Positions 3,763 through 60,041 of a stretch of 64,000 bases of DNA are shown one piece after another. The notes under the pieces were generated by a model. It saw only the letters and a program-made list of their open reading frames with translations. It had not been told where the DNA came from and ran no database searches. Source of the DNA: a virus. Its lineage: Duplodnaviria; Caudoviricetes. Position numbers and translations under genes: made by a program. Numbering within the stretch: position 1 is the stretch's first letter; every line of letters begins with the position of its first letter. The stretch is taken from the IMG/VR virus record IMGVR_UViG_3300025437_000009, one strand, 5' to 3'.

Positions 3763-6423
3763 TTATTCGAACGTAAACAAATCGTCAAAGGTTGTTTTAA
3801 TATCTGTACTTTCAGCAATACGCCACTCTAGTACACCCAACAAGTTTTCTACCTTTTGATCTACAATAGTTGATTCCATAGTTGAATCATCAAATGGTAA
3901 CTCTTTAAACCACGCAGGAATATGTGTTTCATCTGTGGGATAGCCTACACTAGTAAGTCCCAGTGGATTATCCTTTAGCTTACATACAATAGTTTTCATA
4001 CCATCAACAATGGCAGTACTATAGTTGTCGCCATGCATCTTTTTAAGACGATTCCAGTTCATTGCAGCACGAACGTGTCCTGGCATGTTAGCTTTGCCTA
4101 GACGTTCTTCTTCTGCCGTATATTTTGTTAAGTTATTAACACGTTTAGGTGTGCCTTTTTCCCAAGCTGGTCGATCAGCAAATTTAAGTTTAAACTCGCG
4201 AACCTTTTCAATAACACTTTCCTGCGTTGCGCCGGTTAATACGTCCATTAACAAATCACTTAAGAAGTCCTGCACTACCTTAGGAGTATCTGAACGCTTA
4301 AGGTCTAAGCCCATGGCCTTCATCTTACCTGGCTTGCCGTGTGTGTCTAAGCGCACACCTTCCATGTCGTAGATTAGTACACCATAGCGTTTCTTCTTGA
4401 TGAATAGTCCCTTTGATGCAACCATTTCACGACCGCCTTTGATGATTGAACCCATCTCTCTAGGGCAATGGCAAGCACGTTCCATAAACCCTGGGAAGCT
4501 ATCATTTACTGAATCGGCAATGGTATCATATAACTGTACACAGATTTCTCTGTTCCACTCCATGCGTCCTGATTCTACTTCCTCTTTGATTTGCGGCCAG
4601 GCTGAGAAATAGACCGAGTCCGTGTCTCCGTATATGACCGCTTTACCCACGTGGTCGTACTCACCGGTGATAGCTTCGTTGACATGCGAGTCCATGTGTT
4701 TGGCAATGATACGACCCGTAAGTGTCGTACTTTGGCCAATGCGCTGGTCAAAGAAGCGACAGCCCGGATTGAGGATCGCCCCGTAAAGCGAGTTGAGGTT
4801 AATTTTTTTGACAAGTTGCCTTTTGTCCCAGAACGCTGTGTCTTCCGGAGTTTCTGCGGCTTTCTTTTTAGCTTGCATTTCTTTTCGTTCAGCATACCAT
4901 CTCTCCAATAATCCAGGAATAATACCTTTCATATCATATTTAAATATTGTTCCGTTAGCACTGAATGTCCAAGGTTGATTACTATCAAATACCAATCGCC
5001 ACACATCTGCGGCTGACATTACATCACTGGAACCATCTTCCCAGTCTATGGTAATCTCTGTGCCTTGGTCCATGTTCATCACTGCTTGATACTCTAAGCT
5101 ACCAAACATGTTTTCCCAAGCATCAGCAAAACTACTACCACTGGCCATCTTTTCCTTGATGTAGTGATCAGTCATTACCGGACGTAACTGTCCTACGATT
5201 GTTTCTGGACCCATGTTAAGAGCACGGATCGCTGATGGGTAGAGCGAGTTGATGTCAATGGCGCCGATGTATTCGTGCATACCTTTTTTGGGATAAGCAA
5301 CATAGGCACCTGCGGCTTGCGTGTTTCCTTGGTCATCTCTAGATCTCCTGTTAGGCACAACCATGTTACGGCTGTGTGCTTCATTAATAATAGCTTGTTC
5401 GGTTACGGCTACAGCACCCATAGTTGTTTGTAGCAATACTGTATTATCATGTGCAAGTTCATTGGCCAAGTCTAAGAAACGTAATTTCTTATCTAGTTTG
5501 GCCAACAACATAGTATCTTGACGATTATAGTCAATGAACTTAGGAAAATCTCGATTGTATAGTTGATCTAGGGTACCATCGTATGCAACCTTAGATCCAA
5601 CTTCTTCATATTCGCCAATAGCGTCTAATGAATAGCTATGGCGTTCTTCATAGGTATACTTACGATACAGTTGCATGTAATCTAAGTGTACCCGACCCAA
5701 CAAATCAAATGTTAAGTTTTCTGCTCCAAAACGTTCGAATGTACGTTGCTTGGGCATCTGTCCCCATAGGCATAGTCTACGTGTGTCATCTTTTGATAGC
5801 ACACGAGTAATACGCATAACGGTATATGGGATATCAAAACCTTCACTATTCCAACCTGACAAAATATCTGCGTCTTGGATTAAGTCTAGGAACGTGTTGA
5901 GCATGTCTTCTTCACGTTCAAACAAGTAACAGTCTGTGAACTGATTGCAAATTTCTTGTGCGGTTTCCCATGAATAGCTCTTAGGCGGAACTACTAAGGT
6001 AACTAACTTATCCATCCAGTCTAGATAAACTGATATGCTAGTAATAGGATTAAATGGATCTTCAGGTTTAGAGTAGCCACGTACTGGATCAAAGTCGACC
6101 TCAATGTCGAAAAAGGCTGTTTGTAGTTTGGGGGAATCTACACCTAAGTAATTTTCTTCTAGACAACGGAAAATGGGATTAATATCTGATTCCCAAAGGC
6201 CTTTACCAGAATTAATACGTAGTTCTTTGTGGAATTCTTTTGAGTTGCGTGTAGCAAAACGTGTTACAGGCGTGTCAAAAATAGTGCGGAACTTACCGCG
6301 AGGGTCATCGTAATAGAATACATAGTTAGCTGGATATTCGCGATATACACGTTCTCCATTTACACGTTCTACTACATGAATGCGATCTTTGTCGCGATCA
6401 AATAATGCGTCAATATAACTCAT
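3763..6423 (-). CDS. polB: family B DNA polymerase (gp43-like)
   Basis: Exo motifs DIEVD, WNSEGFDIPY, YNRQD. Pol motifs DINSLYPS, KINLNSLYG, YGDTDS. Confidence 0.97.
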   Translation of the reverse strand: MSYIDALFDRDKDRIHVVERVNGERVYREYPANYVFYYDDPRGKFRTIFDTPVTRFATRNSKEFHKELRINSGKGLWESDINPIFRCLEENYLGVDSPKLQTAFFDIEVDFDPVRGYSKPEDPFNPITSISVYLDWMDKLVTLVVPPKSYSWETAQEICNQFTDCYLFEREEDMLNTFLDLIQDADILSGWNSEGFDIPYTVMRITRVLSKDDTRRLCLWGQMPKQRTFERFGAENLTFDLLGRVHLDYMQLYRKYTYEERHSYSLDAIGEYEEVGSKVAYDGTLDQLYNRDFPKFIDYNRQDTMLLAKLDKKLRFLDLANELAHDNTVLLQTTMGAVAVTEQAIINEAHSRNMVVPNRRSRDDQGNTQAAGAYVAYPKKGMHEYIGAIDINSLYPSAIRALNMGPETIVGQLRPVMTDHYIKEKMASGSSFADAWENMFGSLEYQAVMNMDQGTEITIDWEDGSSDVMSAADVWRLVFDSNQPWTFSANGTIFKYDMKGIIPGLLERWYAERKEMQAKKKAAETPEDTAFWDKRQLVKKINLNSLYGAILNPGCRFFDQRIGQSTTLTGRIIAKHMDSHVNEAITGEYDHVGKAVIYGDTDSVYFSAWPQIKEEVESGRMEWNREICVQLYDTIADSVNDSFPGFMERACHCPREMGSIIKGGREMVASKGLFIKKKRYGVLIYDMEGVRLDTHGKPGKMKAMGLDLKRSDTPKVVQDFLSDLLMDVLTGATQESVIEKVREFKLKFADRPAWEKGTPKRVNNLTKYTAEEERLGKANMPGHVRAAMNWNRLKKMHGDNYSTAIVDGMKTIVCKLKDNPLGLTSVGYPTDETHIPAWFKELPFDDSTMESTIVDQKVENLLGVLEWRIAESTDIKTTFDDLFTFE

Positions 6424-7184: not shown

Positions 7185-7455
7185 CTAGGCCCACGCTGTC
7201 TATAGTTACTAAGAAAGCATAGTTAGCCAGTAGGCCAAAGCTACCGCGTGTATAACAGGTCCAGGCCGCGGCACAACACCCACTGATAAAAATTGAGTAT
7301 AACGGAATAACTGGAACTGTGGGAACAGTAGCAGCAAAAATAATAGCACTGATAACGCTACAGGCCCAGCTGAATAACTCAGCGCAGAAACGCAGGGGAT
7401 ATTCCCGAAAGTCTCTGCGTATATATTCAATAGTTCCGTTAAAGATTTCTATCAA
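7162..7455 (-). CDS. small membrane protein
   Basis: Three hydrophobic segments; coupled to the upstream gene. Confidence 0.6.
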   Translation of the reverse strand: MIEIFNGTIEYIRRDFREYPLRFCAELFSWACSVISAIIFAATVPTVPVIPLYSIFISGCCAAAWTCYTRGSFGLLANYAFLVTIDSVGLARMLLSH

Positions 7456-7712
7456 AGTGTTTTACCTACTGTTTCGAGAATTGTATTCAATTCATCGTGG
7501 TCTTGATTAGTTTCACCTAGCTTAGATTTTTGTGCAATCTTAATAGCTTTTTTAAGAATAGCTGGTTTGATTTCCATTTCTTCAGCAATGGCTTTTACTG
7601 TATCGTTAAGTCCTGCATTAAGGTCTTCAATTTCTTGAAGTACTGCCATACCTTCGTTGATAATTTGAGTTAGTTTTAGTTTTTGCTCATTGCTAAACAT
7701 ACGTGCTGACAT
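7452..7712 (-). CDS. dsDNA-binding protein (T4 DsbA/GapR-like)
   Basis: 86 aa helical protein with AIAEEMEIKPAILKKAIKIA; preceded by an SD and promoter-like elements. Confidence 0.6.
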   Translation of the reverse strand: MSARMFSNEQKLKLTQIINEGMAVLQEIEDLNAGLNDTVKAIAEEMEIKPAILKKAIKIAQKSKLGETNQDHDELNTILETVGKTL

Positions 7713-7785
7713 TGGAATCTCCTTGTTAATTGAATTATTATACAGTATTTAATTGTGTAGAGCAAGAGACTTTTAGAAAAATTGC

Positions 7786-7878
7786 TCACTTTAGAAAGTT
7801 TCGGGCACGACTCCGAAATGGTTCCAGGCCAGCAGCCGGCCACACCGCCGTTACAAGTAACGGGTCCTAAGGGTGTTT
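7786..7878 (-). ncRNA. candidate structured RNA downstream of the nuclease gene
   Basis: GC-rich intergenic tract with stems ACACC/GGTGT, CCGTTAC/GTAACGG, GGCC/GGCC, TTTCGG/CCGAAA. Strand uncertain. Confidence 0.45.
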
Positions 7879-7882
7879 GGTT

Positions 7883-8845
7883 TTATTTTGGTCTTCTTTG
7901 TGTGTAGTCATCCAATGACGAATAAAATTGTGGATCTTTTGCTGTTTGCGGCCAGGTGTTGGTTTTTTGTAAATTACGGTGAGCTGCGTATGAATAAACA
8001 TCCTTTGCAATATTGACATACTGTTGTAAAGTTAAATTGCTTTTTCCTTTGTTAATAATCCAAAGAACCCAAACAACATTTCCTGGTTTATATCCGCCGC
8101 CTGGGTTGATTTGATCAGGACTAGGGCTAGTCCACTCGCCGGCAGCTTTCAAAAACCCTTTTCCTATACTGGCACCAAACGGCAAACCACTGTAAGCACA
8201 ACGTTCCTGCTGTAAGTCGTGAAAAATATACCAGGCTTGCTCGATATCAAATTCTATTCCAGCTTTTTGACGTCCTAACATTCCTTGAATACTTTGTGCC
8301 CAATACTGATGCACGGTACTGTTTGGGTTAAACCCTTTACTTACAATTGATGTAATTTGCTGGTCCCATACCTGTGATGTTGGAATCCTAACAGGTTCCG
8401 TTGCTCCAGGTAACAAACTAGCTACATTTGAAGGGGGCACTTTAGTTGACGCCAACAAAACTTTTTTTAATGTTGAAATATTTCCTAAGACATGTTCGCA
8501 AAGACTTATAAAACTTGCCTGCGGCATATTCATTTTTACTGAATTTACACACCAACGAACAAACTGCACATTGTTGGCGGTATATCCAGCTGCAGGATTG
8601 ATTTGATCGGCACTGATCATGTCCCAGTTGCCGGCTCTCTCAAAACTAAATGGTTTACCTGTTAGAGCACACACTTGGCCTTGTCTTTGGAATATTGCCC
8701 AGGCTTCTTCTAACGACATTTGTGCTTTTTTGCGAAGGGTTGATCGCCAGAAATTTACAAACTGCACGTGTATAGGGTTGTTTGCATCGTACCCAGCAGT
8801 TCTGGCGGTATATGGATTGGCTTCGACAATTTCAAACGTTTTCAT
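7883..8845 (-). CDS. protein with two tandem His-Me/HNH-like nuclease domains
   Basis: Two repeats of CAxxGxPF...SxDQINPxxGYxxxNVxxVxWxxNxxK. N-terminus MKTFEIVEA. Confidence 0.6.
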   Translation of the reverse strand: MKTFEIVEANPYTARTAGYDANNPIHVQFVNFWRSTLRKKAQMSLEEAWAIFQRQGQVCALTGKPFSFERAGNWDMISADQINPAAGYTANNVQFVRWCVNSVKMNMPQASFISLCEHVLGNISTLKKVLLASTKVPPSNVASLLPGATEPVRIPTSQVWDQQITSIVSKGFNPNSTVHQYWAQSIQGMLGRQKAGIEFDIEQAWYIFHDLQQERCAYSGLPFGASIGKGFLKAAGEWTSPSPDQINPGGGYKPGNVVWVLWIINKGKSNLTLQQYVNIAKDVYSYAAHRNLQKTNTWPQTAKDPQFYSSLDDYTQRRPK

Positions 8846-8867
8846 ACTGGTTTCTTATAAATACCTA

Positions 8868-8988
8868 GTGCGGTAACAGTACAGCGTGATGCATCAAAGA
8901 ACCCGAGGATTTCCTGTACTTCCCCTCTGGGCAACAACGAATTGGCAGACGAGCTTTGTAGTGCATCGCCGCACACTTATTTTTTTTT
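8868..8988 (+). ncRNA. candidate pseudoknotted small RNA with its own late promoter
   Basis: TATAAATA at 8856-8863. Stems GTGCGG/CCGCAC, GATGCA/TGCATC, CAAAG/CTTTG, CCC-GAGG/CCTC-GGG, and a 7-bp pseudoknot AGTACAG/CTGTACT. A T-run follows. Confidence 0.55.
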
Positions 8989-9720
8989 ACGCCCTTGGCA
9001 ATGGGCACGTTGACTAAATCCTTTTGGGTGTGAACAATCAATACTGCGTTTGTATTTTTTAGACCATTTTTCATCTAAGACTGATTCATTTTTAGAACGA
9101 CCAGATTTCATATTAGCACACCAATGATACATCTTGGCACGTTCGCCTGAGGCACGTTTGGCTTTGGCACGTAGACTGGTCACACTACCTTTACAGCTGG
9201 CGCCTGCACGTTTGACACGCCCTGGACGACTTTTGCCTTTGACCTTGCCGTCGTGAAAGTTTTCTTTTAAGAATGTATCAGCTAGTCGTTTGCACAATTC
9301 TCGTAGTTTTGCGTTGTCTGTTTCTATGCTATCGTCGTGATCTTGTGTAGGATCTTTATATCCGCAATAGACGTGCTCTATGCCTGCATCAGCAATTATA
9401 TCTTCACAACTTTCGCCAGACCGGTCATTCATTGGACGATTACAAGGACTTAAGGTAGTAACAATTATACATTCTGGAGTAATATCACCGTAAGCATCAA
9501 TGGCTGCACGTTCAGCATGTACATATTTGTCATCAATTTTATAACTAGTACGGCAAACTTTTTGACCTTCGGGACCTAATACACAAGCACCAACCATGCC
9601 ATAATGGTCATTGTCTTTTTCTTGATTGTCAAGAACTAACTCGCATAATTCAGCAAGTATAGCATCTAATTCTTCTCGGGGATCACTAGACGGGGCTGTA
9701 AGGATTTCTTGGATAATCAC
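8977..9720 (-). CDS. zinc-dependent deaminase (RibD/cytidine deaminase fold) fused to basic Cys-containing modules
   Basis: Motifs HAERAA and TTLSPC...C. C-terminal basic modules are separated by ...ESVLDE. Confidence 0.75.
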   Translation of the reverse strand: MIIQEILTAPSSDPREELDAILAELCELVLDNQEKDNDHYGMVGACVLGPEGQKVCRTSYKIDDKYVHAERAAIDAYGDITPECIIVTTLSPCNRPMNDRSGESCEDIIADAGIEHVYCGYKDPTQDHDDSIETDNAKLRELCKRLADTFLKENFHDGKVKGKSRPGRVKRAGASCKGSVTSLRAKAKRASGERAKMYHWCANMKSGRSKNESVLDEKWSKKYKRSIDCSHPKGFSQRAHCQGRKKK

Positions 9721-9766
9721 TATTGTCGCCCTCGGCTTGTTCGGGATAAACTGGATATTCGTTCAT
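9686..9766 (-). CDS. putative 26-aa peptide MNEYPVYPEQAEGDNSDYPRNPYSPV
   Basis: ATG overlaps the upstream stop (ATGA coupling). The 3' part overlaps the deaminase start in another frame. Confidence 0.35.
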   Translation of the reverse strand: MNEYPVYPEQAEGDNSDYPRNPYSPV

Positions 9767-10125
9767 TCTGGATTTTCTTCGCTGTAGTTACGCATGATAA
9801 CACCAGCAGTAGCATTAGCATCATTTTCTTCGTCACTGCCAGTGACTCCAGAATCTGGACCTAATTTGTTTTCTTGATCTTGTTTATAGTGTACTAGTTC
9901 GTGTGCTAGTGTACGGAATACATCTTTTGGGTGACGACCTTTTGACACTAGATAAATTGTTTTTTCTTCTGGTTTGTAAGCACCAAATGTTAGGCCTTCT
10001 GCATCAGGAACCTTAGTAACTACATCAATACGTGGGTGCTCGTCAATACCCAAATGGTCACAGGCAAACTTAACAAAGTTTGGCAATTGACTGTGTATTG
10101 GATCAACTACTTCGAAGATTTTCAT
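9763..10125 (-). CDS. zinc metallopeptidase-like protein
   Basis: RTLAHELVH (HExxH). N-terminus MKIFEV. Confidence 0.65.
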   Translation of the reverse strand: MKIFEVVDPIHSQLPNFVKFACDHLGIDEHPRIDVVTKVPDAEGLTFGAYKPEEKTIYLVSKGRHPKDVFRTLAHELVHYKQDQENKLGPDSGVTGSDEENDANATAGVIMRNYSEENPE

Positions 10126-33844: not shown

Positions 33845-33862
33845 CCACCCCATAAATACTAG

Positions 33863-34756
33863 ATGATTAATGTATATCAACGTGGTGGGCATACTATGGG
33901 AGATACCCTTATAGCTATGAGCCTTTTCAACAGTTTAAACCAACCAGTAAATTTAACCACTTCACCAGAATCCCTATACAATCGGTGGAAAGATATACTT
34001 AACATCAACGAACAAATTACAATAACTATTGACAACTACTGCCCATTATATCAAAATCCACCTCACCCAAGATTTTTAGAAAGTTTTAAAGTCTTTAATC
34101 AATATATAAAGCCTGATTCGGTTCAGCTATTTGGACAACAGTTTACTACAGGACGTCGTGGCAAACGTGGTGTTGCTGTGCTAATCAACAATGGTGACCA
34201 AATAAAAAATAGTGACTATTTTGAACTAGTAACTACTACTAGAGAATATCCTTATATTAAATTTCATCCTTGGGAATTATACGAAAAAATTTTATTATTA
34301 GTTCAAGCCGCAGGATACGATCCTTACATCATCGACAATAAAAATACATCTGTTGAAAATAAAATTTTTATCCTTAACGAACTTTGCGATTTTGTAATTG
34401 GTTATGAGGGTGGCTTGTGTCACTTAGCACATACTCTACGATTGCCGACTATAATATTGCCTTGGCGTACACGTTTGGATGAAATTAATGTTACAGATTT
34501 TTTGCATCTCGATAAACAAACATATTTTGTTCGAGACACTAGTGAAATTTTTGGATGGTCCCCCGAATACCTAACAAATTTAGTTGACGGGTTATACCAT
34601 GAAGAGGGTTTTAATAATCAATGGATGACGGTTGATTCATTTCCAGATTCTGGACCATTTATTGACTATTATTATACCGGGTCAAGCGACCAATTCAGAC
34701 AACAGTATGAGTGGGTTATACAATACATGGATAAAAAAACACTAGGCGGTTATTAG
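33863..34756 (+). CDS. GT9/heptosyltransferase-like protein
   Basis: GDTLIA start and FVIGYEGGLCHLAHTL pattern; TAAATA at 33853-33858. Confidence 0.45.
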   Translation: MINVYQRGGHTMGDTLIAMSLFNSLNQPVNLTTSPESLYNRWKDILNINEQITITIDNYCPLYQNPPHPRFLESFKVFNQYIKPDSVQLFGQQFTTGRRGKRGVAVLINNGDQIKNSDYFELVTTTREYPYIKFHPWELYEKILLLVQAAGYDPYIIDNKNTSVENKIFILNELCDFVIGYEGGLCHLAHTLRLPTIILPWRTRLDEINVTDFLHLDKQTYFVRDTSEIFGWSPEYLTNLVDGLYHEEGFNNQWMTVDSFPDSGPFIDYYYTGSSDQFRQQYEWVIQYMDKKTLGGY

Positions 34757-59110: not shown

Positions 59111-59246
59111 TATGTCTCCTTTTTAAATTTAAAAGCTGTTTACTAACAGCGTGATGTTATTATGCACTAACATTCGGACATGTGCAAGTATTATTTTAGC
59201 CAAAAACTTATAAATAAGTATATCATTTATCCAAAAGGAAAATAGT

Positions 59247-59471
59247 ATGGCAAATAACATTTACAAACAAGGTGTACCAGCAGCTACTGGAGTACCTACA
59301 GCAGGTAGTTTAGGAACTCAAGGTGTAGCCGCTACTGCCGCTAGTTACCAAAATATCTATGGCCCAAACGGTGTACCAGCTACAACCGGTAAAGCAACAT
59401 ATTTAGGTGCAAACGGTGCTAATGGTACAACTGTAACTAAAGCCCCAGCTAAAAACACTCCACAGAGCTAA
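59247..59471 (+). CDS. A/T/G-rich small late protein
   Basis: TATAAATA at 59209-59216; AAGGA SD; NIYKQGVP and GVPATTGKATY. Confidence 0.7.
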   Translation: MANNIYKQGVPAATGVPTAGSLGTQGVAATAASYQNIYGPNGVPATTGKATYLGANGANGTTVTKAPAKNTPQS

Positions 59472-59474
59472 TGT

Positions 59475-59708
59475 ATGGCTACTAATACAACAGTTACAAA
59501 CACTATCTATAAAGCAGGTAGTGCAAAAGAAGTGGTTGTTCCCGCGGCAAAGGTTGTTGTTACAGCACCGGCAGTAGTTCCAGCTAGTACTGTTAGAGCC
59601 CTTCCCGGTTCTACAACTACTACACCAGCTCAGGTTGCAGTTACCGCAAACAAAGGTACTATCTATAAGATGGGTGTACCACCTGTTGCAGGTAAAGCAA
59701 AGTACTAG
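59475..59708 (+). CDS. T/V/A-rich small late protein
   Basis: TIYKAG and TIYKMGVPPVAGKAKY. Confidence 0.65.
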   Translation: MATNTTVTNTIYKAGSAKEVVVPAAKVVVTAPAVVPASTVRALPGSTTTTPAQVAVTANKGTIYKMGVPPVAGKAKY

Positions 59709-59711
59709 TAT

Positions 59712-60041
59712 ATGACATACCCTGGGCAAGGCACTCCCAGTCCTGCAATTGGTGTACCGAACCTAGTTCCTACACCAGTTGGCCCAGCGGTAGGTGTTGC
59801 TAATCGTACTCCACAGTATACACCACCACCCGTAGTTGCTCAAACTCATTCATCTGGACTACAGGCTTCTGTTCCAGCAGTGGGACAAGCAAAGCATAAT
59901 CCAAATCCCTACAACAACGCAGATCCAGCGATAGGTATTCCTAAGCATACACCAATACAAACTCCATTGGGTGTCAATCCGCATTTTGAAACACCTACAC
60001 AGGATTGGTCTTGGGACTATGGCAACGGTGGTGGTTATTAA
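59712..60041 (+). CDS. Pro-rich small late protein
   Basis: Same operon; AIGVP/AVGV/AIGIP repeats; aromatic C-terminus. Confidence 0.6.
   Translation: MTYPGQGTPSPAIGVPNLVPTPVGPAVGVANRTPQYTPPPVVAQTHSSGLQASVPAVGQAKHNPNPYNNADPAIGIPKHTPIQTPLGVNPHFETPTQDWSWDYGNGGGY

Follow-up and report, generated by a model that had tools for sequence, protein, structure and literature searches.

Atu_At1 (Rfam RF02496; At1 below) is an orphan structured RNA, catalogued from one 2012 RNA-seq study and filed as a Rhizobiales small RNA (sRNA). In Agrobacterium tumefaciens, it appears as a 113-nt primary transcript by differential RNA sequencing (dRNA-seq) and as a single 115-nt Northern band, strongest at high optical density (OD)/cell density (PMC3384568). 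A literature search found its core sequence and the name Atu_At1 in no paper, and the main text of a later survey of ncRNAs does not mention At1. Here we describe a member of this family in phage DNA, namely in a 64,000-nt stretch (the window, below) of the IMG/VR virus record IMGVR_UViG_3300025437_000009 (Caudoviricetes), where a structured RNA sits in the 131-nt gap between two - strand open reading frames (ORFs; 8977-9720 and 7883-8845). The explanation that we favor overall, with moderate confidence, is that this is a self-promoted phage RNA of the At1 family that would act in trans as a mimic of a host RNA.

EcfG-regulated small RNAs are widespread in alphaproteobacteria (PMC5869019), and RpoE2/EcfG-dependent small RNAs of unassigned role have been reported in S. 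meliloti (PMC6180224). GsrN of Caulobacter crescentus, compared here by description, resembles At1 in being an alphaproteobacterial sRNA of ~100 nt under EcfG/SigT, but GsrN pairs with katG mRNA through a C-rich loop that is exposed, and cleavage yields isoforms of it (PMC5869019), whereas the conserved nucleotides of At1 lie in the junctions of a closed, pseudoknotted fold. Phage-borne transfer RNAs (tRNAs) and transfer-messenger RNA (tmRNA) are likewise RNA families common to bacteria and their phages; unlike At1, they have known roles, and most phage At1 copies are not near tRNA genes. SAM-II and preQ1-II riboswitches are H-type pseudoknot aptamers with U-rich loops. At1 shares with them the pairing of a 5' strand with a hairpin loop into a pseudoknot, conserved flanking U-tracts, a closing helix and, in bacteria, a frequent location in a 5' leader; it differs in being about twice as large, with an extra junction and no known ligand, and in the phage there is no gene for it to control.

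Compared with RF02496, the window RNA has equal length, the same helix order (P1-P2-P3-P4), the same core (CAACGAAnUGGCAGnCGAGC) and a full-length match to the model. Like At1, it would be transcribed independently from a 5' end at P1, which the transcript shows in A. tumefaciens and the sequence predicts in the window. It differs in scoring below the gathering threshold of the family, in being phage-encoded and in carrying TATAAATA instead of an EcfG-type promoter. Two differences concern the family as a whole: the small 5' hairpin of the Rfam consensus gives way, on the evidence of covariation, to a 7-bp pseudoknot with the P3 loop, and what Rfam lists as a Rhizobiales sRNA occurs also in other bacterial groups, named below, and in phages.

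Assignment to the At1 Family

Scanned with Rfam at gathering thresholds, the whole 64-kb window gave no match, and ARAGORN found no tRNA or tmRNA in it. A permissive cmscan of 7300-9900 (E <= 10) returned one match at the site, to RF02496 ("Rhizobiales sRNA") at 8864-8974 (+), with 37.0 bits and an E-value of 8.6e-4 over the 2.6 kb searched, or 9.3e-5 over 281 nt. The alignment spans model positions 1-108 of 108, with P1, P2, P3 and P4 colinear and one non-canonical pair in P3, and the CAACGAAnUGGCAGnCGAGC block is identical between RF02496 and the window RNA.

This full-length, colinear helix match was reproduced with two covariance models of our own. Model R1, built from phage copies only, gave 54-103 bits for 74 of the 100 bacterial loci that were searched first. 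Model R2 left out the window's clade and drew on 67 other members from phages and bacteria; it scored the window RNA at 60.5 bits (E 4.7e-13, full length), its only match in the 64 kb. The Rfam cut-off itself was passed by the bacterial copies checked and by two viral loci (73-118 bits overall); the viral ones, L004 and L035, scored 79.9 and 95.4 bits, respectively, and aligned together with bacterial members of 90-118 bits.

Judged from these comparisons, we hold with high confidence that positions 8868-8974 (+) are the gene for a compact non-coding RNA (ncRNA) of ~107-115 nt, folded as described below and representing a divergent, phage-specific At1 lineage. An earlier note on this DNA, made from the letters alone, had called the RNA uncharacterised and had reasoned that a match to a known Rfam family would remove its novelty. 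The match to RF02496 (full length, E ~1e-4), together with the score from the clade-free model R2, does remove that novelty at the level of the class.

Covariation and Fold

The window sequence by itself says little. When its minimum free energy was compared with that of shuffled sequences, for each strand, stability was indistinguishable from the shuffles (z = -0.81 for the + strand and -0.44 for the - strand), so that one sequence proves nothing and the support for a fold is comparative.

That support is strong. Across 39 distinct phage homologues, 89.2% of the alignment cells were paired, versus 34-54% when the partners were slid, and 26 of the 33 pairs showed compensatory changes; 0 of 500 shuffles equalled the observed value. 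In a larger alignment of 100 phage and bacterial copies to model R1, the figures rose to 93.8% paired cells (34-48% in slid controls) and 29 of 33 compensatory pairs, with again none of 500 shuffles equalling the observed value. The pseudoknot helix was 94% paired over the 100 sequences, with all 7 of its pairs covarying; it cannot have been fitted, because the covariance model did not contain it. Its 5' strand is one column out of register in the window's clade, making these figures slightly conservative. The excess of G-U pairs (148) over A-C combinations (44) identifies the + strand as the folded one. The element is hence a real, structured, pseudoknotted RNA of the + strand, as the earlier note had proposed, and the covariation that it had suggested looking for in homologues is present.

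According to the alignments, helix P1 closes off a junction formed by P2a/P2b and the hairpins P3 and P4, and the strand joining P1 to P2 pairs with the P3 loop to form the pseudoknot (Table 1). P1, P2a, P2b and the perfect 7-bp pseudoknot are where the earlier note had placed them. Its P3 stem also stands, except that position 8931 belongs to the next hairpin; this hairpin, P4, is an additional helix that the note did not contain.

About 60% of the nucleotides of the RNA are paired. The unpaired positions are almost all invariant in phages and bacteria; they include G.AAC, UUUU, UUC and the U-tracts flanking the pseudoknot, and likewise the P4 loop AACGAAnU and the junction AGnCGAG. None of the 39 phage and 61 bacterial copies departs from the core CAACGAAnUGGCAGnCGAGC.

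A self-cleaving or otherwise catalytic RNA would likewise have a compact core with a pseudoknot and unpaired nucleotides that do not vary, and small ribozymes resemble this RNA in their patchy, multi-copy and phage-associated distribution; the earlier note had named a ribozyme as one option. However, the permissive scan gave no match at the site to hammerhead, twister, twister-sister, pistol, hatchet or hepatitis delta virus (HDV)-like ribozymes; nor was any riboswitch family matched there. Moreover, the bacterial homologue gives one full-length band (115 nt, versus 113 nt for the primary transcript; PMC3384568), and the promoters described below set the 5' end at P1, so that there is no upstream substrate. 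We regard a catalytic RNA as most improbable.

Table 1. Positions of the At1-family RNA, its structural elements and nearby features in the window
Feature	Position	Strand	Remarks
Promoter-like TATAAATA box	8856-8863	+	Read in sequence; ends 4 nt before P1
At1-family ncRNA, whole covariance-model match	8866-8976	+	Helices 8868-8974
P1, GUGCGG/CCGCAC	8868-8873 with 8969-8974	+	6/6 pairs with compensatory changes
Pseudoknot, AGUACAG/CUGUACU	8878-8884 with 8914-8920 (P3 loop)	+	Perfect 7 bp
P2a	8888-8893 with 8962-8967	+	6/6 pairs covary
P2b	8895-8899 with 8954-8958	+	3/4 pairs covary, 99% paired
P3 hairpin	8902-8908 with 8924-8930	+	7/7 pairs covary; single C-U mismatch in the window
P3 loop: conserved UUU tract, pseudoknot 3' strand (8914-8920), UUC	within 8902-8930	+
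P4 hairpin and junction	8931-8954; pairs 8931/8932/8935 with 8945-8947	+
Invariant core of the family, CAACGAAnUGGCAGnCGAGC	8935-8954	+	Exact match; 0.01 expected by chance
Nine-T run, possible 3' end signal	8980-8988	+	After P1
Convergent deaminase-domain ORF, 247 aa, cytidine/dCMP type	8977-9720	-	PF00383, 33.8 bits
HNH/EndoVII-like homing endonuclease ORF, 320 aa	7883-8845	-	phrog_3322, 1035, 3118
E2, GC-rich conserved structured RNA-like element	7784-7872		Covarying stems and invariant G-U pair on + strand
DNA polymerase B	3763-6423		52% / 48% aa identity to Sinorhizobium phage Phosso / Agrobacterium phage Atu_ph07
Dps-like mini-ferritin, 144 aa	10523-10957	-	PF00210; 1.5 kb from the RNA

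Putative Promoter and Transcript

The exact TATAAATA box, which is the T4 late-promoter consensus, is found 4 nt before P1 in the window and in three relatives (L005, L006 and L026); in L045, the spacing to P1 is 7 nt. Variants one or two bases off (CACAAATA, TTTAAATA) stand 4 nt before P1 in L039, L044 and L057. In the largest phage group, TATACT or TACAAT lies ~6-7 nt before P1, and in bacteria a GGAAC-N15-18-nGTT element ends 6-7 nt before a P1 that is longer. A promoter element thus ends just before P1 in three settings, indicative of independent transcription.

In the window, TATAAATA is rare: the 64 kb contain 2 sites, where 6.6 would be expected, and the + strand carries both. Downstream of the second, after 31 nt, come a ribosome-binding site and the only clear + strand cassette, 59247-60041. 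The boxes before P1 in the window and its clade, together with this second site, agree with the independent promotion claimed by the earlier note: from its sequence context the window RNA very probably has its own promoter, and its independent transcription in the phage appears likely. An EcfG-type promoter (GGAAC-N16/17-CGTT), which is typical of the bacterial members and lies outside the Rfam definition, was not found before the window RNA; in this phage clade, the putative TATAAATA promoter replaces it.

At the other end, the T-run seen by the earlier note does exist and overlaps the last three Lys codons (KKK C-terminus) of the convergent ORF 8977-9720; it is a possible end signal (see Possible Function).

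Two sites elsewhere in the window bear on this type of promoter. At 33845-33865 (+), CATAAATACTAG, which resembles the TATAAATACCTAG before the window RNA, directly adjoins the ATG of the + strand ORF 33863-34756; it could mark a late mRNA that lacks a leader, or else the start codon may be set wrongly. At 59209-60041 (+), the cassette behind the second TATAAATA comprises three small Pro/Ala/Thr/Val/Gly-rich ORFs (74, 77 and 109 aa) within a region that is otherwise on the - strand, and is a candidate late-promoter unit.

Distribution in Phages and Bacteria

Homologues were sought with the CAACGAAnUGGCAGnCGAGC block (18 specified bases) as a probe. It matched 59 IMG/VR contigs, 52 of which contain the whole RNA, and at least 120 species genomes, with the whole RNA in ~85 among the matches listed. 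The bacterial carriers are mostly Rhizobiales, Devosia, Sphingomonadales and Rhodobacterales, plus one low-GC contig of a Bacteroidota metagenome-assembled genome.

By sequence comparison, uncultured phages of at least four unrelated groups carry At1 RNAs. On a tree built from the short alignment, the window grouped with L005, L006, L026, L039 and L045 (support 0.94), and the remaining phage groups formed separate clades, deep and distinct, which argues for an old and repeated residence in phages, not a recent pick-up. A megablast of 7800-9800 found no match among sequenced phages.

The bacterial distribution is patchy. In one family, 13 of the 41 sampled genomes carry At1, with 1-4 copies each, and a class-level sample of 150 other genomes, in each of which few candidates were scored, contained none. 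These counts led us to reject a universal housekeeping RNA. We also rejected a prophage origin of the bacterial copies, as their neighbors are chromosomal (gltX, a CitMHS transporter, RecQ).

Bacterial Copies and the General Stress Response

A strict GGAA[CT]-N15-18-nGTT motif precedes 39 of the 84 distinct bacterial copies at a fixed distance, as compared to 0.7% of control windows. We recognise in it the promoter consensus of EcfG, the general stress sigma factor, and such a promoter fits the stationary-phase expression of At1.

In some 33 of the 85 bacterial copies (~40%), a Shine-Dalgarno sequence and a same-strand start codon follow 8-60 nt downstream. The genes behind bacterial copies encode PRC-barrel, DUF2934, DUF2171, DUF892 and SDR proteins (by Pfam), as well as small KGG-repeat-like proteins (judged by eye from the translations), all of them typical general-stress products. 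The remaining copies are free-standing, some with a terminator ~35 nt downstream. In the outer part of P1, GGAG/GAGG on the 5' side and CUCC/CCUC on the 3' side are each present in about one-third of copies, versus a 10-11% background; this ~3-fold enrichment, in copies that are not phylogenetically independent, is a weak hint at control of the Shine-Dalgarno sequence.

Such leaders and P1 motifs are expected if the bacterial RNA were a riboswitch-type aptamer that senses a stress ligand and controls the downstream gene via P1, the phage copy being a sensor or a sponge; this would narrow the partner-binding idea given under Possible Function to a small molecule. The architecture (a closed P1, a junction and a pseudoknot) and the invariant unpaired nucleotides would suit an aptamer as well. 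Nevertheless, many copies are free-standing, the window copy is followed by no credible + strand ORF, and the downstream genes suggest no obvious common metabolite. Orthologous loci contribute most of the anti-Shine-Dalgarno signal, which amounts to no more than ~3-fold, and no ligand is known. A riboswitch therefore seems to us unlikely.

Two small proteins recur behind bacterial copies. One, beginning MP(R/Q)GDKSAYTDKQ..., is encoded on the same strand 17-23 nt after At1 in Devosia and relatives (L078, L143, L149, L162, L170, L174 and L179) and has no Pfam match. The other, starting with MEKTETRKLAEEY, follows At1 in Agrobacterium loci.

Neighboring Genes

The earlier note described the RNA as antisense to a late operon. 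This label is not supported, the neighbors being DNA polymerase B, the Dps-like ferritin, the deaminase-domain ORF and an inserted HNH endonuclease; the sigma-70-type promoter that precedes the next - strand gene also counts against it. The region further holds a cytidylyltransferase-like ORF. The sigma-70-type promoter lies at 7713-7783 (-), consists of TTGCTC, a 17-nt spacer and TATAAT with an upstream TG, is accompanied by an AAGGAG ribosome-binding site, and precedes an 86-aa DNA-binding-type ORF (7452-7712).

Within the clade, DNA polymerase is followed by a ~100-aa ORF and a ~87-aa DNA-binding-type ORF, after which comes the RNA, encoded on the opposite strand. The stop codon of the ORF 8977-9720 abuts the 3' end of the RNA, and in all clade relatives a - strand ORF terminates at the equivalent position relative to the RNA. 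The surroundings are different in other phage groups, where the RNA is found upstream of the small and large terminase and portal genes, or after an endolysin gene, facing ribonucleotide reductase. In one unrelated group (L002, L027, L047, L053 and L058), dps directly precedes the RNA on the same strand, and the 5' end of the RNA contains the dps stop codon. No protein partner is common to all phage groups; the Dps-like gene alone recurs, in two of them, and up to 8 kb away from the bacterial At1 copies no dps turned up. Linkage to tRNA clusters was considered and rejected, as it applies to one of 52 loci (L046, where the RNA is in a region with same-strand tRNA genes, the nearest ~1.4 kb away).

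The position of the RNA, as a small independent transcript opposite to its flanking genes and with a 3' end that adjoins the stop codon of ORF 8977-9720 or extends into it, would be compatible with a regulator acting by base pairing, either as a trans sRNA with a seed in a loop or junction or in cis, by antisense read-through onto the deaminase-domain mRNA. The EcfG-dependent GsrN of Caulobacter, which acts by base pairing, provides a precedent (PMC5869019). Yet a seed invariant from Rhizobiales to several phage groups would require an equally invariant target, and a cis-antisense role could not be general, since the context differs in every phage group. Furthermore, there is no typical terminator hairpin with a U-tail, and the main text of the Hfq study in A. 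tumefaciens makes no mention of At1. We also found no recurrent complementarity of At1 to 16S or 23S ribosomal RNA (rRNA), and for lack of any recurrent 16S/23S match, mimicry or complementarity of rRNA by At1 was rejected. Overall, a base-pairing regulator looks doubtful.

Two conserved RNA elements flank the HNH ORF, whose start is 11 nt away from the TATAAATA box, and homing endonucleases insert beside highly conserved sequence. The RNA might thus be a guide or partner of the HNH protein, or merely a conserved landing site for the endonuclease, with no phage function of its own. The ORF, however, is a ~1-kb insertion (7849-8848) specific to the window, between the element E2 (see below) and the promoter of the At1-like RNA. 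It is absent from L006 and L026, where E2 adjoins the RNA, and none of the other 52 phage loci contains a homologue of it, which implies that it is not a functional partner of the RNA; in addition, clades without a nuclease neighbor keep the RNA with compensatory changes. Either form of the HNH link is very unlikely in our view. From the sequence, the position of the ORF fits a free-standing homing endonuclease that landed beside a highly conserved sequence.

A Second Conserved Element, E2

E2 (Table 1) is present in the window and in L006, L026, L033, L040 and L181-L299. Its core, GCACGACU...CCAGCAGCCGG...(G)UCCUAAGGUAG, was found in at least 120 viral contigs, mostly without At1, and it has no Rfam match. 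In L006, L026, L033, L040, L245 and L253, E2 lies ~10 nt upstream of the TATAAATA of the At1-like RNA; the first four of these are without the HNH insertion. A CTCTTGC block, matching the sigma-70-type promoter described above, is conserved beside E2 in many viral contigs.

Two invariant segments of E2 are identical to pieces of rRNA: GGUCCUAAGGUAG over 13 nt to 23S rRNA, immediately 3' of helix 69 (Agrobacterium 23S gene), and CCAGCAGCCG over 10 nt to the 16S 530 loop. E2 is possibly an rRNA mimic; at the level of sequence, the identities could reflect either mimicry or coincidence.

Possible Function

The mechanism that we favor for the phage RNA is that it acts in trans, as a mimic of its host counterpart. 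The RNA would be made from its own TATAAATA promoter, opposite to the flanking genes and probably late, with the TATAAATA box setting the 5' end at the first base of P1. The phage copy would then act as a structural mimic of the host At1 RNA: its invariant junction and loop nucleotides would bind the same conserved, putative partner (a protein or a small ligand), and the phage would thereby tune the output of the host stress response during infection. A closed, knotted fold whose unpaired bases are invariant in hosts and phages, whatever the context, suggests a partner that is recognised by shape. Trans-acting structural mimicry of the host At1 RNA, considered by itself, is proposed here tentatively.

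Several observations weigh against this explanation. The score of the window RNA stays below the gathering score of RF02496 (37 versus 60 bits), and so do the scores of its nearest relatives. The T-run is not conserved in relatives, and a terminator scan called no canonical terminator at the window RNA. The nearest isolates have only ~50% DNA-polymerase identity to the window phage; one of them, Sinorhizobium phage Phosso, has the same synteny in the polymerase region and no match to model R1. Likewise, no copy came up when three versions of the RNA were run by blastn against 50,697 records of sequenced phages. Together, the lack of the RNA in Phosso and in these records indicates that it is dispensable in related phages. 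The ~40% of bacterial copies that precede a start codon fit a cis-acting leader or riboswitch equally well. Finally, we know of no partner for any member of the At1 family.

A related but improbable scenario is that the At1 RNAs are aptamer-like sensors or decoys for a putative factor of the alphaproteobacterial general stress response, be it a protein or a small molecule, and that several unrelated phage lineages captured free-standing copies as sponges or mimics. Captured copies would have been re-promoted with phage promoters, and would blunt or co-opt the host stress programme. If true, it would provide an RNA counterpart of the protein 'sponges' for host signals.

Significance

For the window alone, the outcome is a real RNA, yet another member of a known family. 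What is new concerns the family: a well-supported pseudoknot that is missing from the Rfam consensus, the near-complete invariance of the unpaired bases, bacterial copies tied to EcfG-type promoters and stress-gene leaders, and at least four unrelated phage lineages that keep copies under what appear to be phage-type promoters. Invariant junctions, a patchy multi-copy spread and repeated capture by phages form the pattern of partner-binding RNAs. This pattern makes the At1 family a testable candidate for a ligand- or protein-binding RNA, and one that may give phages a route into the stress physiology of their hosts.

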